The notes under the pieces: model-generated | The model's database searches: none | What the model saw: the letters and a program-made list of their open reading frames with translations, nothing else | Told to the model about the DNA's origin: nothing | Shown here: positions 9,246-28,865 of the stretch, in pieces | Position numbering within the stretch: position 1 is the first letter of the stretch | Layout of the letters: every line of letters starts with the position of its first letter | Program-made: the position numbers and the translations under genes | Source: an uncultured Candidatus Saccharibacteria bacterium | GTDB lineage: Bacteria > Patescibacteriota > JABMPQ01 > JAQVVF01 | Direction: 5' to 3' | NCBI GenBank assembly: GCA_964574655.1 | Contig: CAZNOH010000001.1 | Location: 9,852-73,851 of the forward strand | DNA length: 64,000 bases

Positions 9246-10268
9246 ATGGCTAAAGACACAAAAAAAGAGATGATGGAGGGAAAGAACAAGGCTGTTGAAT
9301 CAGCGATTGATCAGATCAAAGATCGTTTTGGCGAGGGAGCTATTATGAAGCTTGGAGAAGTGAAGACAATGGAAATTGATGCAATTACAACTGGATCAAT
9401 TTCTTTAGATATTGCTTTAGGTATTGGCGGAGTGCCAAGAGGCAGAGTCATTGAAATATTCGGCATGGAGAGTTCAGGTAAGACAACGTTGGCCCAGCAT
9501 ATTATTGCGAGCGTTCAAAGAAAAGGCGGATTGGCTGCTTTTATTGATGCTGAACATGCTTTGGATCCTGATTATGCAAAAGTAATTGGCATTGATATCA
9601 ATGATATGTTGATTTCTCAGCCAGAAACAGGCGAGCAGGCATTAGAAATTGTAGAGACATTAGTCAGATCAAATGCAGTTGATGTAATTGTGATTGATTC
9701 TGTGGCAGCTTTGACGCCGCGCGCAGAAATTGAAGGCGATATGGGTGATTCTCATATGGGTTTGCATGCAAGATTAATGTCGCAGGCTTTGCGAAAATTA
9801 ACTGCAGCTATTTCTAGTTCAAAAACAACTGTTATATTTTTGAATCAAATAAGAATGAAAATTGGCGTGGTGTTTGGTAATCCAGAAGAGACAACAGGTG
9901 GCAAGGCTTTGAAATTTTATTCTTCTGTCAGAATTGAATTAAGGCGCGCTGCTCAAATTAAAATGGGCGATAAAATTATTGGAAATCGTGTTAAAGTCAA
10001 AGTTGTCAAAAATAAAGTTGCACCGCCGTTTCAGACAACAGAATTTGATATTATGTATAATGAAGGAATTTCCAGAGTTGGCGATTTGTTAGATACTGGT
10101 GTTGTTTATAAAGTTTTGGGCAAATCTGGATCTTGGTATACTTTTGGCGATTCTCAGATGGGTCAGGGCAGAGAAGCTTCCAAGCAATATTTGAGAGATA
10201 ATCCAAAAGTTGCAAATACAATTGAAAAGAAAATTTGGGAAATCGTGGAGGCGGGGAAGGTGGATTAG
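9246..10268 (+). CDS. recA: Recombinase RecA
   Basis: Walker [10 protein letters not shown] and highly conserved RecA core; 340 aa. Confidence 0.97.
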
Positions 10269-14978: not shown

Positions 14979-15030
14979 AAAAAGAAATATTGATTGTTCT
15001 TTGACAAAGACAAAGAAAGGAGGGAAGGCA

Positions 15031-16080
15031 ATGGTAATGGAAAATCTGATGCCTGAACAAGAAAAAGTAAAATTGGAACCATTAACAGCTTGGATGATGC
15101 GGGAACGGCGAGATTTTATAGCCAAATCTTCTTTGGCAGTGAGAGCTTTAGTTGTAGAGTTTTTGGGAATGGGCGGTTGTTGGAAAAGCACTTTGATCAA
15201 TGAATTGGTAACAAAATATTTCTATCCATTTGGCATTGAATTAGTGACTTATGAAGAGCCTGATAAAAAGATTCCGGAAGTTTCTCGAGAAAGGGAGCCA
15301 AAGAAGTTTCGCATCGCTACATATAGAAGAACTTTGGCTAATCTTGATGAAGCTTTGGGTTCAGTAAAAGATTTGGCTTTGTTTGATCGCGGACTTTTTG
15401 ATTTTATTGTTTGGTTTAATTTGGATTTTACCGGAGGGCTGTTGAGCGAAGAAGAATGCAGAAGAGGCATTGCTGATATCATGTTGCGTGGTTACGGAAA
15501 GGTTGACTTGATGTTTGTACATACAGATCAGGTTGCTTCTTGCTTGAAAAGCACTCCATCAATGGGTTCAACATCTTTAATGGATTCTTTTTATCTGTCT
15601 CGGCGGAATGCAGGAGAAAGGCAAATTCGTTTCCAGCTTTATCAAAGAATGTACCAAGAAATGTTTTTGGGCGATGAAAAAAAGTTAGTCAAAAAGGCTG
15701 TCAAATTTATGTTTGACATGAATTTGGGAAAGTTTAATCGTAATTTTGCTGAAGTTTTTTGGCAGGCAGTAGTGCTGATTGATCTGTATCTGGTCTTTCA
15801 GACTTGGGAAAGCCTTTTCTTGGATCGTTTTGGAGATGAATTGAAGCAAAATGAGCGCACATCTGATTTGGAAAAAAGGATTATGAAGTTAGGCGAGGCC
15901 TTGTTTTCGTCGCTAGAGCATTTGCGGAGGATTAAAGTTTATGAATTGCATGCAGATATAGTAAAGATCTTGGATTCATACGCGCAGACAGAATTTGTTA
16001 TTGCTCGGTGCGATGGATGGCGGGTGGTGGTTTCGGATATTTTCGGGTCTCCGCCAAAGTTTCGTATCTTGGAAGGTTAA
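15031..16080 (+). CDS. P-loop NTPase, deoxynucleoside/nucleotide-kinase-like
   Basis: Walker A-like VVEFLGMGGCWKSTLINEL followed by a DRGLFD motif. The start is set at the ATG 8 nt after AAAGGAGGG; the in-frame upstream Met at 14950 lies inside the promoter/leader. Confidence 0.45.
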   Translation: MVMENLMPEQEKVKLEPLTAWMMRERRDFIAKSSLAVRALVVEFLGMGGCWKSTLINELVTKYFYPFGIELVTYEEPDKKIPEVSREREPKKFRIATYRRTLANLDEALGSVKDLALFDRGLFDFIVWFNLDFTGGLLSEEECRRGIADIMLRGYGKVDLMFVHTDQVASCLKSTPSMGSTSLMDSFYLSRRNAGERQIRFQLYQRMYQEMFLGDEKKLVKKAVKFMFDMNLGKFNRNFAEVFWQAVVLIDLYLVFQTWESLFLDRFGDELKQNERTSDLEKRIMKLGEALFSSLEHLRRIKVYELHADIVKILDSYAQTEFVIARCDGWRVVVSDIFGSPPKFRILEG

Positions 16081-16105
16081 CTCCTCTTTTTGGGGAGTTT
16101 TTTAT
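16079..16105 (+). terminator. Terminator after the kinase-like gene
   Basis: AACTCCTCTTTTTGGGGAGTT followed by a T-run. It is near-identical to the terminator at 18470. Confidence 0.65.
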
Positions 16106-16185
16106 TGACAAAAAGTAATTATTTTATTATTATTGAGTAAGTTCTTTTATTGAGCGAGTTCTTTCAAAACTAGGAGGAGGAAGAA

Positions 16186-16986
16186 ATGGATGAAAAAAAG
16201 ACATTTAAGGTTGTATTGCCTTCGGGTGATGTGAAGGTTTGGGAATTTGATATTAAAACAAAGCCAAGTGAAGGATTGAATCAAAAAGCAGGAATTGGGA
16301 ATTTATTTTTTAAGTTTGGGAAGATAGCAGGAAAGATAATAGGATTATTTTTCTATTGGTTGGGACATGGATTTGTGTTGATGTTTAAGAAAATTCTAAA
16401 GGCGATTTCTGTCTTTGCAATATTGATTAAAAAAGTAGTGAAAAGAATTTATAGAAAAATGGAATTTCATGGTTTTTTGAGAGTCTTTTTGAATTTCTTT
16501 GTTTTGTTTATTTTAGGATTGGTCAGTTTTTGTTATTGGAAATGGCTAGTTCCTTGGATTCTGTCTGTTGAAGAGATAGCTTATCGTCATTCTGCAACTG
16601 TGTATTTTATTTATTTAGGGGTGTGTTTGTTAGTGACACTTGTATGGCTTTTTAGAAATCTGAATTCAAAAAAACGTAGTGAAATTACAGTTTTATATCT
16701 TGCTTTGATCTTGATTGTAATAGCAATAGCAATGTCAGGTTTTTTTGCTTTTCTAGCAATATCATTTTCTATTTATATCTTTGAAAATGTTGTTTTATCA
16801 GCGATTGTTCATGGGATTTTGCTCCTTTTAGCGATGATATTTGGTATTAGAGAAGCTGAATGGTTAAAACCGGATAAAAAAGAACAACTTGTAATGATTG
16901 ATAGAAACTTAATTGGATTGAAGCGTTTTGCCTCAGATAGCTTAAGAAAATTGGAAAGAATTGAGAAAGAACGTTCAAAAAAATAA
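16186..16986 (+). CDS. Paralog-family protein P1 (conserved N-terminal module MDEKKTFKVVLPSGDVKVWEF, polytopic membrane protein)
   Basis: N-terminal module shared with six downstream paralogs, at least five hydrophobic helices, strong SD AGGAGGAGG, leader motif GTTCTTTCAAAA. Confidence 0.6.
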   Translation: MDEKKTFKVVLPSGDVKVWEFDIKTKPSEGLNQKAGIGNLFFKFGKIAGKIIGLFFYWLGHGFVLMFKKILKAISVFAILIKKVVKRIYRKMEFHGFLRVFLNFFVLFILGLVSFCYWKWLVPWILSVEEIAYRHSATVYFIYLGVCLLVTLVWLFRNLNSKKRSEITVLYLALILIVIAIAMSGFFAFLAISFSIYIFENVVLSAIVHGILLLLAMIFGIREAEWLKPDKKEQLVMIDRNLIGLKRFASDSLRKLERIEKERSKK

Positions 16987-16993
16987 ATTTTAG

Positions 16994-17021
16994 TCCCAAT
17001 AAACAAGATTGGGATTTTTTC
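16994..17021 (+). terminator. Terminator after P1
   Basis: TCCCAAT-AAACAAG-ATTGGGA followed by TTTTTT. Confidence 0.7.
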
Positions 17022-17093
17022 TTAATTTTTTCTCTAGTAAAAAGTTTTAATAGTTAGATAATGGAGTTGTTCTTTGACAAAAAGGAGGAGAAA

Positions 17094-18452
17094 ATGAGCA
17101 AGTCTGTAGTACCGATTATTTTGCAGTCCATGAGACATGAGCAGGATTTATTTAAATGGAATCCAGAATTTGATTTGAATGTAGTTAATTTTGATCAGTT
17201 TAACAGGCCTTACATTAGGCAAAGAGGCAATGATGATCATGAGACTAGTTTTGTTCAAGTTTTGGATGACAGTGGAAAATTGGTAAAGTATGGTTTTGTG
17301 AAGGCAATTAAGGAAAGTTTTTCTGATTTTACAAAGACACTTTTAGGAGCTGGATCGCAGATGGCAAGGATTGTGTTTGATAAAGATAACCATGCTTATA
17401 CTTTAGTACGAATTGCTTGTGGCTTGGGAACGAAAGAAGTCCAGATAGGTTTGTTGCTTTATTCAAGAGATCAATGCAGAACTTGGCAAGTTTATAAGTT
17501 GCCGATTAATGGTGTGGCAACGATGGAATATTTTACCGGACATAATCAGATTAATGGACCGCCAATGATTGCTGTTTTTGAGAAAACAAAGGTGAAGGTG
17601 GCAAAATGGGCGACAATTCATAAATTATATGTTGTGGTGGTTAAAAAAACTAAGACAGGTCTTGAGTTTGAGCAGATAATAAAAGTGACAGAGAAATCTT
17701 TTGGTCTTTCAGCGCATTCTGGTGGGGCATCAGTCTTGGCTAGTTTAGATAGTAAAACGTATGTTATTTGGACAGAAGTAACTAATAACCCTAGTCATTT
17801 GGGATCGCCGACATTTGTAGCGACTTTTGATCATAGTTCCAAGAGATTAATCAATAAATCATTTGTTGGTTGTACATCAAAGCCGAAAAATGATATGCAC
17901 AATACTCCAGGGATTTGTTTGGATAGCCGAGGATTTTTAAATGTAATGCTTGGAGCGCACGCTGGTAGTTTTTTTTATGGCAGGAGCCAGATTTCTAACT
18001 CAGTAGAAAGAGGATGGACTTTGTTGCATGAAACATATTCGTCTGTCGGTCAAACTTATATTGCTTTGGTTTGTGATCAGGTAGATAATTTACATCTTGT
18101 TTTTCGGGATCATAGATATGGCAAAAGAGATTTTCACGCTAGCCATTTTCATTATTGCGCGCTTTGTTATCAAAGAATGTTAAAAGACGGATATTGGGAA
18201 GTTTCAAGACTATTGGTTGTGCCGCCATTGCCAGATTACAGCATCTATTATCATCAGTTGTCGATTGATCGATTAGGAAGATTGTTTTTATCTTACAATT
18301 ACTATAGCGAAAGTGAACCATACAAGAGTTGGATTGAGAAAAATGGCAGATATAATAAGAAATTTCGCGCTATGCTTTTTAGTGGAGATGGCGGTATGAC
18401 TTGGCAAATGGCGACAACGAGAATTTTTTTGGATGGATTTGTGAAGACTTGA
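17094..18452 (+). CDS. Hypothetical protein with two BNR/Asp-box-like motifs (possible beta-propeller)
   Basis: SRDQCRTW and SGDGGMTW match SxDxGxTW. SD AAAGGAGGAG and leader motif TTGTTCTTTGACAAA. The upstream in-frame Met at 17061 is in the leader. Confidence 0.4.
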   Translation: MSKSVVPIILQSMRHEQDLFKWNPEFDLNVVNFDQFNRPYIRQRGNDDHETSFVQVLDDSGKLVKYGFVKAIKESFSDFTKTLLGAGSQMARIVFDKDNHAYTLVRIACGLGTKEVQIGLLLYSRDQCRTWQVYKLPINGVATMEYFTGHNQINGPPMIAVFEKTKVKVAKWATIHKLYVVVVKKTKTGLEFEQIIKVTEKSFGLSAHSGGASVLASLDSKTYVIWTEVTNNPSHLGSPTFVATFDHSSKRLINKSFVGCTSKPKNDMHNTPGICLDSRGFLNVMLGAHAGSFFYGRSQISNSVERGWTLLHETYSSVGQTYIALVCDQVDNLHLVFRDHRYGKRDFHASHFHYCALCYQRMLKDGYWEVSRLLVVPPLPDYSIYYHQLSIDRLGRLFLSYNYYSESEPYKSWIEKNGRYNKKFRAMLFSGDGGMTWQMATTRIFLDGFVKT

Positions 18453-18469
18453 ACTTTGTTAGCTAGGTT

Positions 18470-18497
18470 AACTCTTCTTTTGGGGAGTTTTTTTATT
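18470..18497 (+). terminator. Terminator after the 17094 gene
   Basis: AACTCTTCTTTTGGGGAGTT followed by a T-run; a duplicate of the 16079 terminator. Confidence 0.65.
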
Positions 18498-18627
18498 TTT
18501 CCTAGTTTTTTCAATTTTTTTCTTTTTGATAAGAGATAATAATGAAAGTGGAAAGTAAAAGATAGGACTTTACAACTAGGACATGATCCGCTTTCGCTAA
18601 AGCTACGGCGGACAAAGGAGAACAGCC

Positions 18628-19653
18628 ATGAAGAATATCGGATCAAAATTGTTTGTGCTACTGGGGATGCTTTTGATCGTTATTGGAGCAATTTCGCTTT
18701 TGGTAGCAATTCTTTACGGCAAGTATTTTGCTTTTTTGGCCTTGTATCCTGATTTGGTAGATATGGTGGCGGATTTTGGAGTTAATATTTATCTGTCAAG
18801 AATTGTAGCAGTCTTTGTAACGATTGGATTGTGGGTAGCGATTTTCAAATTCTTGTTGAGCTTCAGCCAGAAAAAGAGAGAAATTGGTTTTTTCATTTTG
18901 TTAGGATTGTTTGTTCTGCATACCTTTTGTTTGTATATTATTAATTTGAATCGGTCTGTTTCTGTTGATGGGCAGGTGGGATTTTGCACGCGAGACCAAA
19001 TTACTGGACGAGTGGAATATTTCGATCGGTCTTTGTATGATGCTTCTGGCCAGAAAGCGGAAAAATGCACAAAAGATGAAATTCGGCAGCTCCGTGTTCA
19101 GGATAAATATCCCAATAATGAGATTCCTTTGATAGCGATTGGCAACTGGTTTGATGAGAATGGTAGTTCGTTGGTTTATTACTATAAAGATAGTCAAGGC
19201 GTACTTCATTTTCGTTATATGGGAGGTTTTGCTCAAACAGGAGAGATGTGGCAACAGGTAACAAAGGAAGTGCTTGGAAAAATCAGTCCAAATTTGCAGT
19301 CGCAGTTTCAGCAAACGAAAGGTGATGTTGTATTGAGGCATAATTTTGATGATCGACCGAATTTAAAGACTCTGTATAGAAATTCTTTGGCGGGATATCT
19401 GATTTTCTTTGTCTTTCTGAATATTGTTTTTTGGGTGGTGTTTTTGAAGATAGCAAGTCTTTCTTTTGGTACGAGGGCTAGTTTAATAGGTTTGGCTGGT
19501 TTGGTTAATCTGGTTGGTTTTTGCGGTATTGATTATGCATCAAGTTGGTCAGGATTGGCAGTTGCGGTTTTAATGATCAGCTTGGCATCGCCGTTTGTAA
19601 TTTCTTTCGTCAAAGGTTTCTGGACAGGAATGAGAGAGAGCAGGCCCGTCTAA
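18628..19653 (+). CDS. Membrane protein, unknown function
   Basis: N- and C-terminal TM clusters flank a ~170 aa hydrophilic domain. SD AAAGGAGAACAGCC precedes the ATG. Confidence 0.55.
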   Translation: MKNIGSKLFVLLGMLLIVIGAISLLVAILYGKYFAFLALYPDLVDMVADFGVNIYLSRIVAVFVTIGLWVAIFKFLLSFSQKKREIGFFILLGLFVLHTFCLYIINLNRSVSVDGQVGFCTRDQITGRVEYFDRSLYDASGQKAEKCTKDEIRQLRVQDKYPNNEIPLIAIGNWFDENGSSLVYYYKDSQGVLHFRYMGGFAQTGEMWQQVTKEVLGKISPNLQSQFQQTKGDVVLRHNFDDRPNLKTLYRNSLAGYLIFFVFLNIVFWVVFLKIASLSFGTRASLIGLAGLVNLVGFCGIDYASSWSGLAVAVLMISLASPFVISFVKGFWTGMRESRPV

Positions 19654-19696
19654 TTAAGGGCGGGAGGTCAACCAACTGGAAGAGGAGGAGACGGTC

Positions 19697-19927
19697 ATGA
19701 CAGGATACACAATCGCAATGTTGATTACTGGCGGGATTTTGCTGATTGTCGGTGTTTTGATTGTAACAGGCGTTTGGAATCCATTTTCTAAGAAGGATGC
19801 AGATGGCAAGAAGGAGCCGTTGTCCCGAAAGGAAAAAGGGATGGTGGCAGGCTTCTTTGCAATGCTGATTCTGGCAATCGTGAATTTCTTCTACGCCATT
19901 TTTCCGATGCAGAAGCGAAAGTCCTAA
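19697..19927 (+). CDS. Small 2-TM protein (paralog of 28448..28696)
   Basis: 76 aa with two hydrophobic helices, shares the W-x-PF...K-x-PL-x-KEK pattern with the 28448 ORF, SD GAGGAGGAG, followed by terminator hairpin CCCGA/TCGGG. Confidence 0.55.
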   Translation: MTGYTIAMLITGGILLIVGVLIVTGVWNPFSKKDADGKKEPLSRKEKGMVAGFFAMLILAIVNFFYAIFPMQKRKS

Positions 19928-19945
19928 AATATCATTCGTTCATTC

Positions 19946-19969
19946 ATCCCGATTTATTCGGGATTTTTA
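19946..19969 (+). terminator. Terminator after the small 2-TM gene
   Basis: CCCGA-TTTAT-TCGGG followed by ATTTTTAT. Confidence 0.55.
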
Positions 19970-20047
19970 TTTAATTGACAATAAGATTCTTTTATACTAT
20001 GTTGGAGAGAATGTTCTTTTCAAAATAGAAGAAAGGAGGAAAAAAGG

Positions 20048-20794
20048 ATGTCTAAGGGAGAGAAATTTAAAGTAATTGATCCATCGGGGGAATTGAAGGA
20101 ATGGTCATTTAAAGAAAAGCCAAAAAGTGCTGAACCAATGGTTTGTGAGGAAAAGAGAATAGAAACAAAGCCAAGTGTATTTTTCGAACTTGGAAAAATG
20201 TTTGGAAAAAAAATGAAGTTCTTGAAGTTATACGGAGTATGGATTATTTTTTGCATTTTGGGTATTCTCGCTGTTTTTTTTATTTGGGTATTGGCAATTT
20301 TTGTGCATGGAAGCGATTTTCTTTCTCAGACCATTCCAATACAGTCTAGGTCGCAACAGAAGCAAAGTATTGTCACACAAAATACCAAAGTGGTACAAAG
20401 ATCATGGCCACTGGGAAGCAAAGCAGAAGTATTGGTAGAAGATGTGGAGTGGAATTATTCAAGAAATGAGTTTTACTGTAATTTACATGAGATTAAGGGA
20501 TGGAGTGTTGTTTTTGATCGGGTAGAGACGCGGATCTGGAAATTACAGAAAAGTGATGAATCACCACAAGTTTTTAAACAAAGAGAGCCTCATTATTGGA
20601 CCCGAAACGTGCATCTTAATATTAGGCCTTTTCAACGTTATTGTGGAAAAGATAGACGGTCAGATCGTTGCGTGATAACTTTGGAAAACTATCGAGCATG
20701 GCTACAAGAAATAGAATGGATTGAGGTGAAACTTTTAGGTAAAGATGCACGAGGAAATGAAGTGAGTGTGGTTTTAGAGACTTATGATCATTGA
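20048..20794 (+). CDS. Paralog-family protein P2 (N-module + 1 TM + C-terminal domain shared with P6)
   Basis: MSKGEKFKVIDPSGELKEWSF, one TM. The C-terminal ~115 aa are alignable with the C-terminus of P6 (RIWKLQ..ESPQ.FKQR.P..WTR.VH...LENYRAWLQ..EWIE.KL.GKD.RGNE). Confidence 0.6.
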   Translation: MSKGEKFKVIDPSGELKEWSFKEKPKSAEPMVCEEKRIETKPSVFFELGKMFGKKMKFLKLYGVWIIFCILGILAVFFIWVLAIFVHGSDFLSQTIPIQSRSQQKQSIVTQNTKVVQRSWPLGSKAEVLVEDVEWNYSRNEFYCNLHEIKGWSVVFDRVETRIWKLQKSDESPQVFKQREPHYWTRNVHLNIRPFQRYCGKDRRSDRCVITLENYRAWLQEIEWIEVKLLGKDARGNEVSVVLETYDH

Positions 20795-20952
20795 TATTTA
20801 TACAGTTTTTTGAAGCTGTATTTTTTTTCTTAACTTTTTCAATTTTCTTTTTAAAGATTTGTTCTAATATTAGGTTAGATGATAGTTGACTAATTTTATT
20901 GTTCATGCTATCCTACAGTGATTGTTCTTTGACAAATCAAGGAGGAAGGAAA
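20795..20952 (+). repeat. Array cassette copy A (terminator + CTTAACTTTTTCAATTTTC box + promoter + GTTCTTTGACAAA leader + SD)
   Basis: About 85-95% identical to cassettes B-E over ~130 nt, by direct reading. Confidence 0.8.
20886..20914 (+). promoter_or_regulatory. Cassette promoter (TTGACT-N17-TATCCT) of P3
   Basis: Part of the duplicated cassette; same geometry in all five array copies. Confidence 0.45.
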
Positions 20953-21558
20953 ATGCCAGAAGAAAAGAAAACTTTTCAAGTGATTGCGCCGGATGGAGAG
21001 CTGAAAGAATGGGAAATTGAGAATTCAAAAGAAATAGGATTGGTGGAAAACAAGTTTAAAGAGAGACGAGCGATTTCAGTGAATGTTTTTTTTAGATGTG
21101 GAAGATGGGCAGGAAAAATAATATTGGGTTGGTTTTCTTTTTTCGTTTCAAAATTAGAACTTTTATTAAAACAAAAAGCCGAAAAGAAATTATTGAAAGT
21201 AAAAGAGAAAGTTGAAAGGGAAGAGAGTAAACGGTTAAAAATAAAGAGAATACATGAAGAAAGAATGCATGAAGAAGCAAAGAGAAAAGAATTAATTTTG
21301 CAGAGTATTGATGTTTTGGACAATGCGGGATATCACGAAAAAGCTGCAAGGATTGCTAAGGAGACAGGAAGTTATGAGAGAGCTATTGATATTTTAGATC
21401 GTACTGGACACCATGAAAAAGCTGCAGAGATTGCTGAGGAGGTAGGAAATTATGGGAAAGCTATTGATATTTTGGTACGATCGGGACATCACGGAAAAGC
21501 AGGGAGAATTGGTGAAAGACTTGCTAGAAGATCTAATAATTCTGTAAAAAAAGTTTAA
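20953..21558 (+). CDS. Paralog-family protein P3 (N-module + tandem 19-aa helical repeats)
   Basis: MPEEKKTFQVIAPDGELKEWEI, then three tandem repeats of G[YH]HEKAA.IA.E.G.Y..AIDIL.R.GHH. The start is at the ATG after AAGGAGGAAGGAAA. Confidence 0.6.
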   Translation: MPEEKKTFQVIAPDGELKEWEIENSKEIGLVENKFKERRAISVNVFFRCGRWAGKIILGWFSFFVSKLELLLKQKAEKKLLKVKEKVEREESKRLKIKRIHEERMHEEAKRKELILQSIDVLDNAGYHEKAARIAKETGSYERAIDILDRTGHHEKAAEIAEEVGNYGKAIDILVRSGHHGKAGRIGERLARRSNNSVKKV

Positions 21559-21746
21559 GATTTAAATAAAGATACTATTTTATTAATTTGTACCTTTTCG
21601 GAGTTTTCTCCGATTTTTTTTATTAACTTTTTCAATTCTCTTTTTAATAATTTGTATTAAAATTAGATTAGATGGATAGTTGACCAATCTTATTGTTCAT
21701 GCTATTCTTCAGTGATTGTTCTTTGACAAATCAAGGAGGAAGGAAA
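21559..21746 (+). repeat. Array cassette copy B
   Basis: Hairpin TCGGAG/CTCCGA, the TTAACTTTTTCAATTCTC box, promoter, leader and SD. Confidence 0.8.
21680..21708 (+). promoter_or_regulatory. Cassette promoter (TTGACC-N17-TATTCT) of P4
   Basis: Duplicated cassette copy. Confidence 0.45.
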
Positions 21747-22838
21747 ATGGCAGAAGAAAAGAAAACTTTTCAAGTGATTACGCCGGATGGGGAATTGAAA
21801 GATTGGGAATTAGATGCGCCTAAACTAAAAAAGGCGGATGATAAGCTTAATAAAAAAAATCAGAGTTTGAGATTGGCTTTTGAATGGATGAAGAAAGCAG
21901 GAATGGCAACAGGAAAACATTATAGATTAATCCTGATTGTTGCGAGCTGTGTTTATTTGGCGGTATGGATTTGGCAAGAAAGATCTTTTCGTCTTGAAGA
22001 ACTTCATCGTCAAGAAGTAGTAGCTATGCAGTTACAGCAAAAAGAGAAAGCTAGAATGAGAGTAGGAGAAGAAAAAAAGGAAGAGAAGATTGCAACCACA
22101 AAGGCACAAAAAACTGACGAAAAAACACAAGAGGTTGAAGAAAAAGTTGAAGTTGCAGAACCTGAAAAAGAAAAAGAATGCTATGGTAAAGGGAACAAAT
22201 TGGTGAATGGGGTATGCGTACTAGAACATGTTATAAGAATGCATGAACAGTACGAGCACGAATTACAAAAAGAAAGACAAGCAGACAAAGAGAGACAACG
22301 TGGAGATGAGTTACGCAGGAAAGAAGTGTTTCACAGACAAGAGGAAGCTTGGTTGGTAGAAGAAGCAATGCGAAAGTTAGAAGTGGAGCGGAAAGAGGAG
22401 CACGAAGCTATTTTGGGACAACGACATGAGTATTTGAAAGAGCAACGAAGATTAGAAAGAGAGAGCAATCCTCATGTATATAGATCAAAATATCCAGTAG
22501 TTTTAAAGCCAGATTTATTAATAAAAGGAGCCTCTTCTAGCGTGATAGACGTTCCGGATGACTTTATAATCAGAGAAGTCATTATTGAACTAGATGTGAA
22601 GGTGGATAAACAGTATCTTCCATCTCAAAGTCATTTTGATTGTAATCTCTTGAGATCAGGCAAATTAATTAGTTTAAAAGGTTGTTGTATAGGTGGATGT
22701 GTTTTTAGCGAATTTATTCGTGAATCGTCAAGAGGGGAATGGAAAATATTGAAGAAAAAAATGCCAGGACGATTTCTTAGGTGGAAGATAACAATTGTCC
22801 CGGCAATTGCAGAAGATGGAACAGTGTTAAAACCTTAG
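21747..22838 (+). CDS. Paralog-family protein P4 (N-module + TM + charged coiled-coil + P-domain-like C-terminus)
   Basis: First ~90 aa identical to P5. E/K/R/Q-rich middle section. C-terminal ~95 aa alignable with P5 (VIDVPDDF.IR...CNL.RSGK...GEWKI...ITI.PA.AEDGTVLKP). Confidence 0.6.
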   Translation: MAEEKKTFQVITPDGELKDWELDAPKLKKADDKLNKKNQSLRLAFEWMKKAGMATGKHYRLILIVASCVYLAVWIWQERSFRLEELHRQEVVAMQLQQKEKARMRVGEEKKEEKIATTKAQKTDEKTQEVEEKVEVAEPEKEKECYGKGNKLVNGVCVLEHVIRMHEQYEHELQKERQADKERQRGDELRRKEVFHRQEEAWLVEEAMRKLEVERKEEHEAILGQRHEYLKEQRRLERESNPHVYRSKYPVVLKPDLLIKGASSSVIDVPDDFIIREVIIELDVKVDKQYLPSQSHFDCNLLRSGKLISLKGCCIGGCVFSEFIRESSRGEWKILKKKMPGRFLRWKITIVPAIAEDGTVLKP

Positions 22839-23002
22839 ATCTTTTTTGTTAAAACGCGCATTATTGACGCGTTTTTTTCTTAACTTTTTCAATTTTGTTT
22901 TTGAAGATTTGTTCTAACATTAGGTTAGATGATAGTTGACCAATCTTATTGTTCATGCTATTCTTCAGTGATTGTTCTTTGACAAATCAAGGAGGAAGGA
23001 AA
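22839..23002 (+). repeat. Array cassette copy C
   Basis: Hairpin AACGCG/CGCGTT; the remainder is near-identical to copy B and continues into the identical first ~270 nt of P4/P5. Confidence 0.8.
22936..22964 (+). promoter_or_regulatory. Cassette promoter (TTGACC-N17-TATTCT) of P5
   Basis: Duplicated cassette copy, identical to the P4 copy. Confidence 0.45.
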
Positions 23003-23959
23003 ATGGCAGAAGAAAAGAAAACTTTTCAAGTGATTACGCCGGATGGGGAATTGAAAGATTGGGAATTAGATGCGCCTAAACTAAAAAAGGCGGATGATAA
23101 GCTTAATAAAAAAAATCAGAGTTTGAGATTGGCTTTTGAATGGATGAAGAAAGCAGGAATGGCAACAGGAAAACATTATAGATTAATCCTGATTGTTGCG
23201 AGCTGTGTTTATTTGGCGGTATGGATTTGGCAAGAAAGATCTTTTCGTCTTGAAGAACTTCATCGTCAGCAGGTAGTAGCTAAGCAGTTACTGCAGGTGG
23301 AAGAAGGAAAAAGAGAGAGAATAAGAATACGAACAGATGAAGAAAGAAAACGTCGTGATGAAGTAGAGAGACAACAGTTGGAACGGCAAAGGTTGGAAGA
23401 ACAGCTGTGGGTAGAAGAGGAGCATAGCAGGCAGGCAAAATTACGTCAGACGAAAGATGATAGGAGACGTCGTGATGAAGAGGAAAGACGGCTGATAATG
23501 TTGCGTCGACAAGAGGAAATCAGATTGGCACGAGAGGCAAAGCAAAGAGAGAGGGAAGAACGTGAACCGCATACATATAAAACGAGTCAGCCAATGGTAT
23601 TAAAAGCAGGCGCATCACAAGAAGCTTATTTTAAATTTGCAGAGAGTGTAATTGATGTTCCAGATGATTTTTATATTAGAGGGATTAGGATTTGGTTAAA
23701 GTTGGATGTTAAGAGCTTTTATAGAGATGAATTTTTAAAACCTCGTTATGACGGTTTAGAATGTAATCTCGTGAGATCTGGCAAGGTAACTTTTTTAAGA
23801 GATTGTTGTCTTGATGGATGTCTTTTTGATGAATTTAATAGTGAATCGTCAAAAGGAGAATGGAAGATAAAGGTAAGAGCAGTAGAAGGATGGATTAATT
23901 CGTGGCAGATAACAATTACGCCAGCAGTTGCAGAAGATGGGACAGTATTAAAACCATAG
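23003..23959 (+). CDS. Paralog-family protein P5 (mosaic paralog of P4)
   Basis: Identical to P4 over the promoter, leader and first ~90 codons, diverges into an R/E-rich coiled-coil, then rejoins P4 in the C-terminal beta-domain. Confidence 0.6.
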   Translation: MAEEKKTFQVITPDGELKDWELDAPKLKKADDKLNKKNQSLRLAFEWMKKAGMATGKHYRLILIVASCVYLAVWIWQERSFRLEELHRQQVVAKQLLQVEEGKRERIRIRTDEERKRRDEVERQQLERQRLEEQLWVEEEHSRQAKLRQTKDDRRRRDEEERRLIMLRRQEEIRLAREAKQREREEREPHTYKTSQPMVLKAGASQEAYFKFAESVIDVPDDFYIRGIRIWLKLDVKSFYRDEFLKPRYDGLECNLVRSGKVTFLRDCCLDGCLFDEFNSESSKGEWKIKVRAVEGWINSWQITITPAVAEDGTVLKP

Positions 23960-24125
23960 ATTGTTTTTTGTTAAAACGCGCATGTGTCGCGTTTTTTTTT
24001 TAACTTTTTCAGTTTTCTTTTTAATAATTTGCATTAAAATCAGATTAGACGGATAGTTGACCAATTTTATTGTTCATGCTATCCTGTAGTGATTGTTCTT
24101 TAAACAAAGAAAAGAGGAGGGAAGT
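23960..24125 (+). repeat. Array cassette copy D
   Basis: Same terminator type as copy C, box TTAACTTTTTCAGTTTTC. The leader variant ends GTTCTTTAAACAAAGAAAAGAGGAGGG. Confidence 0.75.
24057..24085 (+). promoter_or_regulatory. Cassette promoter (TTGACC-N17-TATCCT) of P6
   Basis: Duplicated cassette copy. Confidence 0.45.
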
Positions 24126-25271
24126 ATGCCTACAGAAAAGATATTTAGGGTGATTACGCCGGCAGGAGAGAGAAAAGAGTGGGTGATAAAAAATGAAGCT
24201 TGCGAAGTTCAACCTAAATGTTTAGTGCAAGAACAAAAGAAAGATAGATTTGATGGATTTTTAGATGGAGTGAGCAAGAAATTGGGTGAAGCGGGAAAGG
24301 AATTAGCTAAAATAACAGTTTCTTTTATTTCATGGTTGAGAACGAATATTAGAGTGATCTTGCTTGCTATGTTAGTCTTAGCGGCTTGTATAGCGCTATG
24401 GCGCTTAGTAGTTTTTGTAGGCATTCTATACGAGGCATTTGTTGATTGGTTGACGAAAAATAAATCTTCAGATGGAGCATGGTGGATGACTTATTTTCTT
24501 GGCATTGGCATATGGTTGATGATTGCTGTTGTTTATTTTCTGTTGATCTATGTCAAAAGAGAACACAGAATTTGGGGAGTTCGTTATTATGATTTTGCTG
24601 ACTTTTTTTGGTTCTTGGCATTAGGAGTATTTTTAGCATTTGTTGGCGGGTTAATTTCAGCGCAGGTCGCTTCTTGGCTTGCTTCGATTGTACCTTGGTA
24701 CTTGTCAATAATTATTCCATTAGCGGTTTCTTTGTTAGGAATTGGATTGATTAAAAACGGAATTTATCAATGCAATTTTGATGAAAAAGTTTGGTGGATA
24801 GTTATTCTAGCTGTGATATTGTTAGTCTCTGGAGTTAAAGCAGGCTGTGAATTAAGAAAAAAATGGCAGACTGAAAGAGAAGAATCTTTACGACAGCAAG
24901 CAGTTGAGCGTTTGAAATGCAAGGCAAGAATTTTGGTAGAACATTCAAGTTGGGGTTGGTCAAATAATGAATTTCATTTTAGTTTACAGGACATGGGAAA
25001 TTGTGGAGTTGTTTTGAATAAAGCGGAAGTCAGGATTTGGAAATTGCAAGAAGATAATGAATCTCCGCAATCTTTTAAGCAACGCCAGCCGTTTTTTTGG
25101 ACAAGAGATGTTCATTTTGAGGCTGACTCATTTCAATGCATGGAGGGTAGTATAAAATTGGAAAATTATCGGGCTTGGTTGCAAGATAAAGAATGGATTG
25201 AAATTAAACTATTTGGTAAAGATGAGCGTGGAAATGAGTTAATTGTACTTTTGGAAGCATATGATGAATAA
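24126..25271 (+). CDS. Paralog-family protein P6 (N-module + polytopic membrane region + C-terminal domain shared with P2)
   Basis: MPTEKIFRVITPAGERKEWVI, about six hydrophobic helices, C-terminal domain homologous to the P2 C-terminus. Confidence 0.6.
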   Translation: MPTEKIFRVITPAGERKEWVIKNEACEVQPKCLVQEQKKDRFDGFLDGVSKKLGEAGKELAKITVSFISWLRTNIRVILLAMLVLAACIALWRLVVFVGILYEAFVDWLTKNKSSDGAWWMTYFLGIGIWLMIAVVYFLLIYVKREHRIWGVRYYDFADFFWFLALGVFLAFVGGLISAQVASWLASIVPWYLSIIIPLAVSLLGIGLIKNGIYQCNFDEKVWWIVILAVILLVSGVKAGCELRKKWQTEREESLRQQAVERLKCKARILVEHSSWGWSNNEFHFSLQDMGNCGVVLNKAEVRIWKLQEDNESPQSFKQRQPFFWTRDVHFEADSFQCMEGSIKLENYRAWLQDKEWIEIKLFGKDERGNELIVLLEAYDE

Positions 25272-25465
25272 TATTATTACAGCTCTTTAAAGCTGTATTT
25301 TTTTCTTAACTTTTTCAATTTTCTTTTTTATAATTCGTATTAAAATCAGATTAGATGAATAGTTGATCAATTTTATTGTTCATGCTATTCTATAGTGATT
25401 GTTCTTTGACAAATCAATCCGCCTTCATCTCTGCGGAGACTACGGTGGACAGGGGAGGAAGGAAA
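25272..25465 (+). repeat. Array cassette copy E (with a ~40-nt GC-rich leader insertion)
   Basis: Hairpin ACAGCT/AGCTGT, box, promoter TTGATC-N17-TATTCT. The leader GTTCTTTGACAAATCAA is interrupted by TCCGCCTTCATCTCTGCGGAGACTACGGTGGACAGG before GGGAGGAAGGAAA. Confidence 0.75.
25363..25391 (+). promoter_or_regulatory. Cassette promoter (TTGATC-N17-TATTCT) of P7
   Basis: Duplicated cassette copy. Confidence 0.4.
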
Positions 25466-26269
25466 ATGGCAGAAGAAAAGAGGACTTTCAAGGTTGTTGC
25501 GCCGGATGGAGAGTTGAAGGAATGGGAGTTTGGAGCTTCGGAGGCAAAGAAAAGTATCTCTTTAGAATCATGTCAGTCAACTAAAACAGATGAGATTATC
25601 AAACATTCTTCAAATCAGATTCGAGCAGAAGCGTATATAGTTGTTTTTAAGATCGGTAAATGGTTGGGAAATGTGATTAAACATTTTGTTTTGCAACTTA
25701 GGATATTTTGGCAAAAAATGACAGCTAAGAAATATTCTACTTATGATGATTTTCAGAAAGGCAAGTGTCTTATGGTAGTAGAGGAAGACTTGATTATTAG
25801 TGAAAAGGAACTTAGATATGAACAATCATATGGAAGATCGTATTTGAAATTAATTATGGTAATTTCATGTCTAAGGGAAATAAATGTTGTTTTCACAAAA
25901 GGCAAAGTTGTAGGCGAGAGTGAATATGGTCTTGCAGAATTTGATATTACTGGTTGTATTAGGAATTTGGAAATTTTTGTTTTTGTAGACAGAAAAGAAA
26001 TAGTTATCGATTTGAGTTGTTTAATCAGTCTGATTGAAAAATGTGAAGTGTTAAATATAGAACTTTTGGGGAGCGAAACAGATTTGTTTTCAGGGCAAAA
26101 AAGATTGAGAAAAATTCGTTTTGAATTTGCTAAATTAGGAGGTAAATTAGTTAAATATCATTGTACTTTTTGTGATTCTAGTGCTTTCTCTTCTGATTTG
26201 CTTTTTTATTCCCAATTTATTTGGGATTTTTTATTTTTCTTAATTTTTTCAGTATTTTTCTTATTATAA
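25466..26269 (+). CDS. Paralog-family protein P7 (N-module + distinct body + C-terminal hydrophobic tail)
   Basis: MAEEKRTFKVVAPDGELKEWEF. Its leader carries a ~40-nt GC-rich insertion relative to the other cassettes. The C-terminus FLFFLIFSVFFLL is hydrophobic. Confidence 0.55.
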   Translation: MAEEKRTFKVVAPDGELKEWEFGASEAKKSISLESCQSTKTDEIIKHSSNQIRAEAYIVVFKIGKWLGNVIKHFVLQLRIFWQKMTAKKYSTYDDFQKGKCLMVVEEDLIISEKELRYEQSYGRSYLKLIMVISCLREINVVFTKGKVVGESEYGLAEFDITGCIRNLEIFVFVDRKEIVIDLSCLISLIEKCEVLNIELLGSETDLFSGQKRLRKIRFEFAKLGGKLVKYHCTFCDSSAFSSDLLFYSQFIWDFLFFLIFSVFFLL

Positions 26270-26325
26270 AAAAGCAAAAATGAAGCTAGCAGATAGTTCT
26301 TTCACAACAGGCAAAGGAGGACAAA

Positions 26326-27285
26326 ATGTGGGCGAAAATCGGGTTTTTTTTGCTGGCAGTCTTGGCAATTTATATCGGCATTGCGCTTTTAGTAAAGTTT
26401 TTTCCGCAGATTTTTCGGCAAAAAAATCTTGATACTCTGCGGAGGGCAAGCGGAAATATGTTTGTTCCTCAAGGCGCTTTTGGAAGAACTCTTGGATTAA
26501 CATTGGGAATTCCGGTGGCGATAATGGGAGTAACAGCAGTAGTAGAATTTGAACAAAAAAGATTGCTAGGTTTGAAAATTAGAGAACTGGAAAATAAGAT
26601 AGTTGCTAAATTAAGCAAAGGAATTATTTATTTTATTTCGCTTAGAGTTTTTTTGGATGAGAAGTTGAGTTTGTGGAAAAGACAGATTGCAATTGGTGAA
26701 TTTGAGCATCTTAGTTTGTTGGGCGAGGTTGATGATTTGGCGAGAAAATTAAAAGATTTTTGGCCAGTGATTTCAGAAATCGAAGTTTTGCTGGCAGATA
26801 ATTTTCAATTGTTAGAAAAAGTGAAGCAAATGCAGTTGCCTTCGGAAATTAATGGCGAGGTTGGGAAATTGGAGCAGGCTTTGAGGGAATACCAGAAAAT
26901 AACGATAGATTTTGACAGTTTGGCGCCTTTTGTTTCTTTGGGCGATGATTTGAAACAGATCAATACTTTATTAAAGCAAATTATGATGATGGATTCTGAA
27001 TTGCAGAATAAGATTGAGCCTAAAAAAGATTATTATATCATTTTAGGACTTAAAAAAAATGCTTCACAAGAAGAGATAAAGAAAGCTTATCGAGCTTTGG
27101 CGATAAAATTTCATCCTGATAAAAAAAGATCCCAATTGGAAAAAATTGACGATGAGGATATGAAAGCCAGAATTGAAGAAGAATATAATCGGATGCTGGC
27201 GGATATTAATGAAGCTTATGGAATTTTATTAGATGTCCAAAAGAGAGAAGAATATGACCGAACTTTTTCGTCAAGTACTTTTTAG
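26326..27285 (+). CDS. DjlA-like membrane-anchored J-domain co-chaperone
   Basis: Two N-terminal TM helices, a coiled-coil middle, and a C-terminal J domain with HPD (DYYIILGLKKNASQEEIKKAYRALAIKFHPDKK). Confidence 0.7.
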   Translation: MWAKIGFFLLAVLAIYIGIALLVKFFPQIFRQKNLDTLRRASGNMFVPQGAFGRTLGLTLGIPVAIMGVTAVVEFEQKRLLGLKIRELENKIVAKLSKGIIYFISLRVFLDEKLSLWKRQIAIGEFEHLSLLGEVDDLARKLKDFWPVISEIEVLLADNFQLLEKVKQMQLPSEINGEVGKLEQALREYQKITIDFDSLAPFVSLGDDLKQINTLLKQIMMMDSELQNKIEPKKDYYIILGLKKNASQEEIKKAYRALAIKFHPDKKRSQLEKIDDEDMKARIEEEYNRMLADINEAYGILLDVQKREEYDRTFSSSTF

Positions 27286-27364
27286 TATTTGACATTTTTC
27301 TTTTGTTTTGTTTGAACAAGATAAAAGAAAGATAGTTAGCTCTTTAAAAAAAGGAGGGAGAGAC

Positions 27365-28192
27365 ATGGCAAACATAGTCAAGAGGCCAGAATCAGTAACA
27401 GCGCTTTTGACTGATATTCGGAAATTTACAGGCGGTCAATTTTCATCAGTTAGAAAAGAAGATCAGCAGGCAAGTTTTGGCAAAAAACTGCAAGTTGTTT
27501 TTCTGTTTGATACAACTGGAAGCATGTATCCGTATTATGAGCTTGGCAAGAAGCAAATTAGCCAGATAGTTTCGAAGGTCGTAGAAAAACATCGGCAGGC
27601 GCAGTTTTGCTATTTGGCTTATAAGAATCATGGCGATGAAACAGAATTTTTTGACGGCGAGAATCCTTTCTTTGCCTCTTCTTTTACCAGTGATCCAGAA
27701 CAAATCAAGTTGGAATTAGAGAAGGTGAAGAATGGAGGCGGAGGCGATGGTTTGACAGCTTTGGAATGCGTTTTTCATTATCTTAATGTAAATGTCAAAT
27801 GGCAAGATTCGGCAACAAAAATTGTGGTTTTAATTGGCGATATGCCGCCTCATGGAGTGATTGATTCGGTAGCAAAATGTCCAAAAAAGCATAATTATCA
27901 AGATGAGATTGCGCAAATGAAGGCGAAAGGGATAAAGGTTTATTCAGTATTCTGTTTTGAAGAGGGTAATTTGGTTTCATCTCGGATAAAGCAGGTTAAA
28001 ATGTTTTTTAGGGAAACAGCTTCAAGAACTAATGGGCGCTATCTGGAATTGGCAGAGATTGGAGAAATTGTTGATTTGTTGACAGGAATTTGCATGAAGG
28101 AAATTGGTCATTTGGATGAATTTGTCAAGGATTTGGAAAGATTGCAGCAGCTTTCCGATGGGAAGAGAAGACTGTTGCTGGCACTGAAGTAA
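27365..28192 (+). CDS. von Willebrand factor type A (vWA) domain protein
   Basis: MIDAS-like VVFLFDTTGSM with an alpha/beta alternation typical of vWA. Start is the ATG after AAAAAGGAGGGAGAGAC. Confidence 0.6.
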   Translation: MANIVKRPESVTALLTDIRKFTGGQFSSVRKEDQQASFGKKLQVVFLFDTTGSMYPYYELGKKQISQIVSKVVEKHRQAQFCYLAYKNHGDETEFFDGENPFFASSFTSDPEQIKLELEKVKNGGGGDGLTALECVFHYLNVNVKWQDSATKIVVLIGDMPPHGVIDSVAKCPKKHNYQDEIAQMKAKGIKVYSVFCFEEGNLVSSRIKQVKMFFRETASRTNGRYLELAEIGEIVDLLTGICMKEIGHLDEFVKDLERLQQLSDGKRRLLLALK

Positions 28193-28202
28193 GGAGGAAG
28201 CC

Positions 28203-28457
28203 ATGGTAGAAGAACGGAATGAAACAGTTGCAAAAGGAATTAATTTTTTGTTGGATATGGCTGCAAATATGGGCAAGATGGCAGTGAACAATGTTTTTGA
28301 AGTGGAGACAGCGGATGATAGGACAAAAGAAGTGAGCAAAGCGGAGATCAAGAAAAGTTTCAGAAAGCAATTGATAAAAATGGTCTTGGATTTTTTCGGT
28401 GACGAGGAGGATGAGCAGAAACCCGAAGACAAACAAGGAGGCGAGCCATGTGGTTGA
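28203..28457 (+). CDS. Small acidic hypothetical protein
   Basis: 84 aa, SD TAAGGAGGAAGCC, overlaps the next ORF by 10 nt (coupling). Confidence 0.45.
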   Translation: MVEERNETVAKGINFLLDMAANMGKMAVNNVFEVETADDRTKEVSKAEIKKSFRKQLIKMVLDFFGDEEDEQKPEDKQGGEPCG

Positions 28458-28696
28458 CAATTCTTTTGATTGTTTTGTCGGCAATTGCGATGTTGGTTGG
28501 TTCGGCTTTGATTTTGGATTTTTGGACGCCTTTCAAAAATGAACATGGCGAAAAAACGCCGCTGTTGCCAAAAGAAAAAAGTGCAGTCGGAGTGATTGTG
28601 CTAGGAATAGTTGTTTCATTGTTATCATTGATCTTTGTTGCTAATCCGCCTTGGCTTAGTCAGCTTCGCGAGAAGATGAAGTCTAACAAGGCGTGA
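28448..28696 (+). CDS. Small 2-TM protein (paralog of 19697..19927)
   Basis: 82 aa, two hydrophobic helices, shared W.PF...K.PL..KEK pattern, SD AGGAGGCGAGCC, followed by terminator CCCGAA/TTCGGG. Confidence 0.55.
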   Translation: MWLTILLIVLSAIAMLVGSALILDFWTPFKNEHGEKTPLLPKEKSAVGVIVLGIVVSLLSLIFVANPPWLSQLREKMKSNKA

Positions 28697-28710
28697 ACTT
28701 TTGTACTTTA

Positions 28711-28735
28711 CCCGAAAATAACTTCGGGTTTTTTA
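28711..28735 (+). terminator. Terminator after the second small 2-TM gene
   Basis: CCCGAA-AATAAC-TTCGGG followed by TTTTTTA. Confidence 0.65.
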
Positions 28736-28865
28736 TTTAATCGACAAGTTGTTATTAAAAACGTATAATTTAGATAATAAAAATATAAAATTTATATTAA
28801 ATTAAAATAAAAATATTTGTTCTTTGAAAAAAAGGAGGGCGTAAAAATGGCGTGGTTGAAGAAAA

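Follow-up and report, generated by a model that had tools for sequence, protein, structure and literature searches.

An Old Tandem Gene Pair in a Patescibacteria Chromosome with a Probable Recent Gene-Conversion Tract Spanning Promoter and 5′ Coding Region

The window analyzed here is a 64,000-nt stretch of contig CAZNOH010000001.1 (GCA_964574655.1) from an uncultured Candidatus Saccharibacteria bacterium, in which two neighboring genes, P4 and P5, are identical over exactly 338 nt and diverged on either side. Global alignment, sliding identity, and direct offset comparison placed this tract at 21675-22012 and 22931-23268 (338/338 nt, offset 1256), and a census of 31-mers identified the pair as the sole long exact repeat of the window. 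We consider an old tandem duplication, combined with a single recent gene-conversion tract, to be the best explanation, with a probability of roughly 0.75.

A Perfect Tract between Diverged Flanks

The identical block begins 5 nt upstream of the -35 box and comprises the -35/extended -10 core promoter, the 5′ untranslated region (5′UTR, a leader of ~32 nt), the ribosome-binding site (RBS) GGAGGAAGG, and codons 1-88; codon 89 differs only synonymously between P4 and P5, giving 89 identical amino acids (aa). On the 5′ side, back to the preceding terminator (21610-21674), P4 and P5 agree at 51/65 positions (78%) with one 1-nt indel, and on the 3′ side 6 mismatches occur in 28 nt, after which the alignment collapses. 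This 3′ transition zone would represent residual ancestral homology and could have carried the end of the conversion. An earlier note, made by a model from the sequence alone, had described near-identity between ~21640-22010 and ~22896-23266, with promoter, leader, and ~90 codons in common and complete divergence after the residues ELHRQ. The repeat is real, and the core promoter, leader, and 88 codons (89 aa) are indeed shared, but the left border had been set ~35 nt too far upstream, the A/T-rich upstream element lies outside the block, and the divergence, although it ends in a collapse of the alignment, is not instantaneous. The sliding-identity comparison that the note had proposed revealed sharp boundaries and nonuniform divergence between the P4 and P5 regions.

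Chance is excluded as the origin of the 338-nt identity: 0/20000 permutations of the mismatch positions gave a run >99 nt, against the 344 observed in the indel-adjusted alignment, and 0.78^338 is ~3e-37. Purifying selection alone would have to keep the N-terminal module and promoter identical, and these are the most conserved parts across the gene family to which P4 and P5 belong. However, other family members differ from P4/P5 by 6-22% of nucleotides in the same leader and first 26 codons, and identity is therefore not demanded by constraint. Across codons 1-88 the synonymous divergence (dS) was 0 over 51 synonymous sites (Nei-Gojobori), and the accompanying 72 non-coding nt showed 0 differences, whereas the 118 aligned C-terminal codons, 58% identical in aa and 67% in nt, yielded a proportion of synonymous differences (pS) of 0.52, a dS of 0.79-0.90, and a nonsynonymous divergence (dN) of 0.35 by the same method. 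At the C-terminal rate, ~25 changes would be expected at the ~51 synonymous sites, and the border of the block is abrupt. Purifying selection alone is effectively refuted by the silent-site data. The C-terminal realignment itself had been reported before and is real, extending beyond the ~95 aa then claimed.

Six genes, all on the + strand, form a head-to-tail array (g1, g2, P4, P5, g5, and g6) in which P4 and P5 come third and fourth. Over the 65 upstream nt, P4 was nearest to g6 (57/65) and g5 (56/65) and P5 was nearest to g2 (57/65); P4 and P5 (51/65) were among the least similar pairs, and one nucleotide later they become identical. Flank and tract are incongruent, with upstream segment A grouping P4 with g5/g6 and P5 with g2, while in segments B and C P4 equals P5. 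Given this incongruence and the presence of two borders, a short non-reciprocal exchange is indicated, since a single unequal crossover would leave one border. P5 is tentatively the donor, because its g2-like upstream flank is continuous with a g2-like block. At the 3′ ends, similarity between P4 and P5 runs past the stop codon into paralogous terminators, and the whole unit was therefore probably duplicated long ago. An identity tract bounded on both sides by diverged homology, a deficit of silent-site changes, flank incongruence, and a recA gene in the window are the hallmarks of gene conversion found at this locus. The earlier proposal of recent gene conversion or recombination is borne out by the dS of 0 in the tract against ~0.8-0.9 in the C-terminal region, the sharp borders on both sides, and the conflicting flanks.

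In the history that we favor, P4 and P5 would be old tandem duplicates within a lineage-specific array of seven paralogues on the chromosome of a deep-branching member of the Patescibacteria. Each unit would consist of a terminator, an A/T-rich upstream element, an extended -10 promoter, a short leader, and a strong RBS, and each protein of a cytoplasmic N-terminus of ~57 aa starting with the hairpin motif TFQVIxPDGELKEWE, one transmembrane (TM) helix, a charged stalk of 100-150 aa, and a four-Cys beta domain of ~100 aa. Following duplication, the C-terminal domain would have drifted to a dS of ~0.9, and the stalk would have become nearly unalignable through indels and K-to-R shifts in composition. 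One RecA-type non-reciprocal exchange would then have replaced 338 bp in one copy by the sequence of its neighbor, beginning 5 nt before the -35 box and ending at the third position of codon 89. This would leave two genes with the same expression signals and cytoplasmic/TM module and with different stalk lengths and head surfaces. Any role in cell-surface or host interaction would be putative.

The same mosaic could be read in reverse: a gene and its 5′ module would have been duplicated recently, after which one of the two copies had its upstream flank and its 3′ two-thirds replaced from a diverged strain allele or an unseen paralogue. A single-genome sequence cannot tell which segment is new, and the modularity of the family (a C-terminal domain common to g1 and g5 despite different TM numbers, and N-terminal regions common to g2 and g6) points to past module exchange. 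Yet at least two replacements would be needed, one on each side of the block, as opposed to a single short patch; each copy has flanks similar to other array members rather than to foreign DNA, in a region of uniform composition; and collections of 5.8 and 1.84 billion proteins held no other relatives of P4/P5. We regard this order of events as unlikely.

Independent Assemblies and Points against Conversion

Other runs of the same project yielded Logan contigs that are 100% identical to the window. Contig L002 (SRR13723394) corresponds to 23239-25327 with 100% identity; its left end covers exactly the last 30 nt (k-1, k = 31) of the block, and its right end falls within another repeated 31-mer. 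Two further contigs, L083 and L084, end exactly 30 nt into the repeated 31-mer at 20822-20852, and because their ends fit the same logic, that of L002 reads as a branch in the assembly graph. The break at 23268/23269 therefore implies that the reads of SRR13723394 contain a second path, which coincides with at least the final 30 nt of the block before diverging, as P4 does at 22013. A fourth contig, L001 (SRR13723397), corresponds to 22716-24562 and confirms that stretch.

Several points weigh against our interpretation, in whole or in part. L001 crosses the 338-nt repeat unbroken, where an exact two-copy repeat predicts a break, and the P4 junctions were absent from the independent Logan contigs when queried with full P4, P4 from codon 80, and full or partial g2; a control look-up recovered the analogous partial fragment of P5, showing that partial products are indexed. 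As the P4 3′ junction was not recovered, the evidence that the P4 copy is identical comes from the NCBI assembly and the inferred branch at 23268. Low coverage or sample-to-sample differences at P4 could account for the discrepancy between L001 and L002. The timing and direction of the conversion are inferred from one genome. Topology and the fold of the beta domain come from low-confidence predictions (predicted local distance difference test, pLDDT, 52-60), and the family is not uniformly surface anchored, since g2 lacks a TM segment and g6 is hydrophobic only in its C-terminal tail.

The missing P4 junctions and the unbroken L001 would also be in keeping with an assembly or polishing artefact, whereby similar but nonidentical 5′ ends were homogenized by consensus polishing or repeat collapse, and exact repeats longer than the read length are classic sites of such errors. 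However, in another run the k=31 de Bruijn assembly is interrupted precisely at 23268/23269, with the ends of L083 and L084 predicted by the same logic, and the borders are clean, identity just beyond them being 78%. An artefact is in our view very improbable.

Architecture of P4 and P5

Hydropathy predicted a single TM segment at residues 58-76, with flanking charges of +3/-1 on the N-terminal side and +3/-4 on the C-terminal side that fit an N-in orientation. AlphaFold, run on the P4+P5 alignment, predicted helices at 24-54, 59-135, and 151-240 (pLDDT ~90 over 170-230), followed by a linker and an all-beta domain of 5-8 strands modeled with low confidence (pLDDT 52-60). Four Cys of the beta domain are conserved between P4 and P5 and would be compatible with an extracytoplasmic location. 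On these predictions P4 and P5 look like single-pass membrane proteins oriented N-in, with a stalk formed by a long charged helix and a head formed by the Cys-bearing beta domain; their topology and their exposure at the surface are model-based.

The middle regions had been described as charged and unrelated. They are indeed composed of 56% (P4, K-rich) and 71% (P5, R-rich) E/K/R/Q/D, but a weak collinear signal remains: their Smith-Waterman score was 87 versus 65.6 +/- 7.5 in shuffles (z = 2.9), with 17/2000 shuffles reaching 87. The two stalks are most likely homologous and heavily diverged by indels. P4 carries a stalk insertion at residues ~142-158 (22170-22220), absent from P5, that contains two Cys (C145 and C157; ECYGKGNKLVNGVC) and interrupts the predicted long helix.

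The NCBI products deposited for P4 (379 aa) and P5 (334 aa) start upstream of the predicted -10 box of their own promoters. The ATG 48 nt downstream of the deposited start, behind the GGAGGAAGG RBS, is more likely to be the start of both genes, judging from these signals (21693-21747 and 22949-23003).

Resemblance of the C-Terminal Domain to the Proprotein-Convertase P-Domain

A loose resemblance of the C-terminal region to the proprotein-convertase P-domain had been noted earlier; it is suggestive but not established. PF01483 was the sole Pfam match, for P5 only, at E 0.08-0.14 and 12.8 bits, which misses the family's gathering threshold of 21 bits; P4 had no match to PF01483 at E <= 10. When a profile of the P4/P5 C-terminal domain was run with HMMER without prefilter against 1.84 billion representatives, the best match beyond P4/P5 was P0003, a 712-aa protein with five PF01483 domains (E 2.5e-7). 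The five repeats, ~90% identical to one another, inflate this value, and rescoring gave 10.8 bits for the best single domain; an isolated P0003 repeat scored 18.3 bits, the highest of 3000 shuffles 7.5. With hhalign, the five P0003 P-domain repeats aligned over 89 columns at 88.7% probability, and the motif spacing typical of the domain was present. A second HMMER match, P0004 with CBM14 repeats, was rejected as a repeat-inflated Cys-pattern match (<=6.7 bits per repeat). A PDB sequence search returned nothing meaningful, and Foldseek on the low-confidence AlphaFold model added nothing on the fold.

Like the PF01483 P-domain, the P4/P5 head is C-terminal, ~100 aa long, and all-beta in the model, and its motif spacing is similar (I-V..D..I.dv.V.vdi / L..sGk...L / G.W.i.v......G.l..W.iti). 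P4 and P5 have no attached protease domain, however. We lean toward the head being a very divergent P-domain-like sandwich, a plausible assignment whose membership in the family stays below threshold.

A Modular Array with a Shared Leader

Including the outlying g0, the motif (K)TF(Q/K)V(I/V)xP(D/S)GE(L)K(E/D)WE was present at the N-terminus of 7/7 members, and AlphaFold drew it with low confidence as a beta hairpin. Approximately 160 nt, comprising a terminator-proximal A/T-rich element, promoter, and leader, are common to g2, P4, P5, g5, and g6, and the 34-nt promoter core occurred in 5 copies in the window versus 0 expected by chance. All array members are complete transcription units on the same strand, with a promoter and a terminator for every gene. 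The genes directly adjoin terminator-promoter units, and no small open reading frames (ORFs) intervene. Coordinates are collected in Table 1.

Table 1. Features of the P4/P5 locus and its surroundings (window coordinates)
Feature	Position	Strand	Description
Block copy 1	21675..22012	+	Probable gene-conversion tract; -35, extended -10, 5′UTR, RBS, codons 1-88 of P4
Block copy 2	22931..23268	+	Promoter core 22936-22964, leader, RBS, codons 1-88 of P5
3′ transition zone	22013..22040	+	6 mismatches in 28 nt
P4 coding sequence	21747..22838	+	363 aa; ATG behind GGAGGAAGG RBS
P4 layout			N-terminal hairpin motif TFQVITPDGELKDWE; TM 58-76; charged helix ~77-240; beta domain ~265-363 (predicted)
P4 stalk-coding region	22041..22460	+	K/E-rich, predicted long alpha-helix, P4-only inserts
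P4 C-terminal linker and Cys-bearing beta domain	22461..22835	+	4 Cys conserved with P5; candidate divergent P-domain-like sandwich
P5 coding sequence	23003..23959	+	318 aa; N-terminal 89 aa as P4, shorter R/E-rich stalk, beta domain 58% identical to that of P4
g2 terminator	21598..21621	+	Hairpin TCGGAG..CTCCGA and T-run; terminator scan
P4 upstream element	21610..21674	+	A/T-rich, TTAACTTTTTCAAT...TTAGATTAGATGGATAG; type II variant common to g5 and g6; outside identical block
P5 upstream element	22867..22930	+	Type I variant common to g2; outside identical block
P4 promoter	21680..21708	+	Predicted sigma-70-type; TTGACC, 17 nt, TG-n-TATTCT
P4 terminator	22851..22878	+	AAAACGCG..CGCGTTTT and T-run; paralogous to P5 terminator
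P5 terminator	23973..24005	+	Terminator scan
g0	16186..16986	+	Outlying seventh member; N-terminal motif and about 5 TM
g1	20048-20794	+	N-terminal motif, other C-terminal module
g2	20953-21558	+	N-terminal motif, other C-terminal module, conserved promoter/leader
g5	24126-25271	+	Multi-TM, C-terminal domain shared with g1, conserved promoter
g6	25466-26269	+	Conserved promoter
5′UTR motif GTTCTTTGACAA	21718..21729	+	Common to nine transcription units, 14996-28830
GTTCTTTSAMAA sites	14996, 16158, 17069, 20924, 21718, 22974, 25401, 26296, 28819	+	
recA	9246..10268	+	PF00154, E 4e-133

The earlier note had gone further and read the locus as cassettes under active shuffling. This was not upheld: one tract is visible, the members are complete same-strand transcription units, and there are no silent cassettes and no site-specific recombinase or reverse transcriptase in the window. 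The grain of truth in the idea of shuffling is that the family, by its sequence, has been modular over evolutionary time. More broadly, programmed variation would make the conserved 5′ ends substrates for switching or cassette exchange, in the manner of the Mycoplasma Vpma/Vsp/Vsa loci, the orphan cassettes of polymorphic toxins, or a diversity-generating retroelement. A tandem array of paralogues with highly conserved 5′UTRs and N-termini and variable C-termini bears a superficial likeness to vpma loci, which have their recombination sites in the 5′UTRs (PMC2268961). However, all genes lie on one strand and have five full promoters instead of one expression site; a domain search of ORFs >= 150 aa in the 64-kb window found no tyrosine or serine recombinase, integrase, or reverse transcriptase; and no inverted repeats flank the genes. 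Mismatches between P4 and P5 in the C-terminal region were not A-specific, with 22/61 at an A on either side, spread evenly over codon positions and showing no adenine bias. Neither toxin or immunity domains nor PADLOC or PHROG matches were detected. Programmed variation of any of these kinds seems to us a very slim prospect.

The individual candidates were rejected on the same grounds: a Vpma/Vsp/Vsa-type phase-variable locus by the five promoters, one per gene, on the + strand only and the lack of a recombinase domain among window ORFs >= 150 aa; a polymorphic toxin/orphan-cassette locus by the lack of toxin or immunity domains and of small intergenic ORFs; a retroelement target by the mismatch spectrum and the lack of a reverse transcriptase in the window; and defense-system, phage-protein, and prophage readings by the lack of PADLOC and PHROG matches.

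Other members of the array have features of their own. In g2, tandem 78-nt (26-aa) repeats at 21306-21461 are 77% identical and give weak TPR-like Pfam matches. A C-terminal domain of ~125 aa, without a Pfam match, is common to g1 (20411-20791) and g5 (24912-25268) at 52% aa identity, and sits behind 1 TM in g1 and ~6 TM in g5. The 3′ ends, terminators, and upstream elements of the next gene are also paralogous between these two genes (20675-20853 versus 25152-25330, 179 nt at 75%), which suggests an older segmental duplication of a g1-g2-like pair.

The 12-mer GTTCTTTSAMAA occurred in 9 copies versus 0.24 expected, all on the + strand within a 14-kb stretch and each followed after 10-25 nt by a GGAGG RBS. 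The downstream genes are otherwise unrelated, encoding a P-loop protein, a BNR protein, family members, a TM-DnaJ protein, and a TM protein. The motif might act as a common operator (TTGT-N6-ACAA close to the transcription start) or as an anti-Shine-Dalgarno element; a predicted leader RNA hairpin that would sequester the RBS was no better than shuffles (z = -0.37), and an Rfam scan of the window found no known RNA family. Directly 3′ of the array (26326-28192) are genes for a vWA-domain protein and for a TM protein whose C-terminal part is a DnaJ (J) domain (E 1e-17), the DnaJ gene bearing the same leader motif. That these two are partners of the cytoplasmic N-terminal tag of the family is pure speculation. 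Two BNR/Asp-box proteins (sialidase-like propellers) are encoded at 17061-18452 and 54806-56251, the first within the 14-kb stretch and with the shared leader motif.

A bolder and rather doubtful proposal is that 14.9-28.9 kb forms a co-regulated, lineage-specific cell-envelope island of an episymbiont of the candidate phyla radiation (CPR). Nine units would have a common 5′UTR/operator motif, the N-terminal tag would dock seven proteins to a common partner or sorting route, and the tag-plus-promoter module would be homogenized by recurrent gene conversion while stalk length and heads diversify. Such an island would serve host attachment or phage evasion and would parallel, on a chromosome and with TM anchors, the Borrelia Erp or Mycoplasma strategy of variable surface proteins.

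An Orphan Family in a Sparsely Sampled Lineage

A search with P4 of 5.8 billion clustered proteins returned only P4 itself and P5, and the homologue search for g1 returned only g1. Scans of GTDB genomes, JGI metagenomes, and IMG/VR viral contigs with N-terminal, full-length, and C-terminal alignments found no relatives. A word-indexed search with the N-terminal family profile also found nothing, a weak negative given that it missed the query proteins too. On this sequence evidence the seven-member P4/P5 family appears to be a lineage-restricted orphan.

The setting, as judged by gene content, is chromosomal and among ordinary genes, namely rpoB, rpoC, ftsK, recA, efp, ychF, rpsF, ssb, trpS, RNase J, uvrA, uvrC, polX, and groEL. 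The contig as deposited measures 654 kb. GC content is 33.7% across the window, and both GC and skew are uniform, on which basis a foreign island was rejected. RpoC (1831-5655) was at most 56-57% identical to the best of the 600 GTDB representative matches listed, mostly metagenome-assembled genomes of Patescibacteria/Saccharibacteria, and remained a singleton at 90% clustering. These data indicate that the source is a deep, very sparsely sampled Patescibacteria (CPR) lineage, and the absence of the family elsewhere may partly be a sampling effect.

Significance and Comparison with Known Systems

The family has a modular build, in which a shared promoter, leader, and N-terminal tag precede membrane, stalk, and head modules that vary. 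Should the heads be surface exposed, the array would be a candidate locus for host interaction or envelope variation in a group whose surface biology is largely unknown, and if our interpretation is true, RecA-driven concerted evolution operates in such reduced genomes. Two hazards for annotation follow from the locus: the exact 338-nt repeat fragments short-read assemblies, and the deposited start codons probably lie upstream of the -10 box of the promoter.

The nearest organizational analogue, by analogy and not homology, is the Borrelia burgdorferi Erp (OspE/F/Elp) family with its upstream homology box. Erp proteins form a multigene family with conserved promoter/operator, leader, and first residues, the rest being diverse and shaped by frequent recombination between paralogues, and they are co-expressed, not switched; a single ancestral module of promoter, operator, and leader became joined to varied sequences for exterior parts (PMC10016077). 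Similarly, five units in the present array have a common promoter/leader of ~160 nt and the N-terminal motif, and each has its own promoter. Unlike Erp proteins, which are lipoproteins with a signal peptide and lipobox encoded on cp32 prophage plasmids, P4 and P5 have neither signal peptide nor lipobox, the first hydrophobic segment being the TM anchor at 58-76 behind a 57-aa N-terminus predicted to be cytoplasmic. They are also tandem and chromosomal, among recA, ychF, rpsF, and ssb, without PHROG matches and without sequence similarity to Erp.

The Mycoplasma Vpma/Vsp/Vsa/Vlp systems for variable surface lipoproteins resemble the locus in their small genomes, tandem paralogue arrays, conserved 5′UTRs and N-termini, and C-terminal parts that vary and are often charged or repetitive (PMC2268961 for Vpma). 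However, Vpma/Vsp/Vsa loci combine one promoter with inverted gene orientations and an adjacent Xer-like recombinase, none of which is found at the P4/P5 locus. The Vlp loci carry a poly-A tract in the promoter spacer that P4 and P5 do not have.

Tandem bacterial paralogues that evolve in concert through partial gene conversion are familiar, for example tuf, rRNA operons, and adhesin/porin families. As in those cases, a perfect tract of a few hundred bp lies inside diverged duplicates, bounded on both sides and with RecA present, and nothing essential differs; here the tract covers regulatory DNA together with the 5′ coding region of an uncharacterized family. The process is textbook partial gene conversion, and what is new is its substrate, an orphan modular family.

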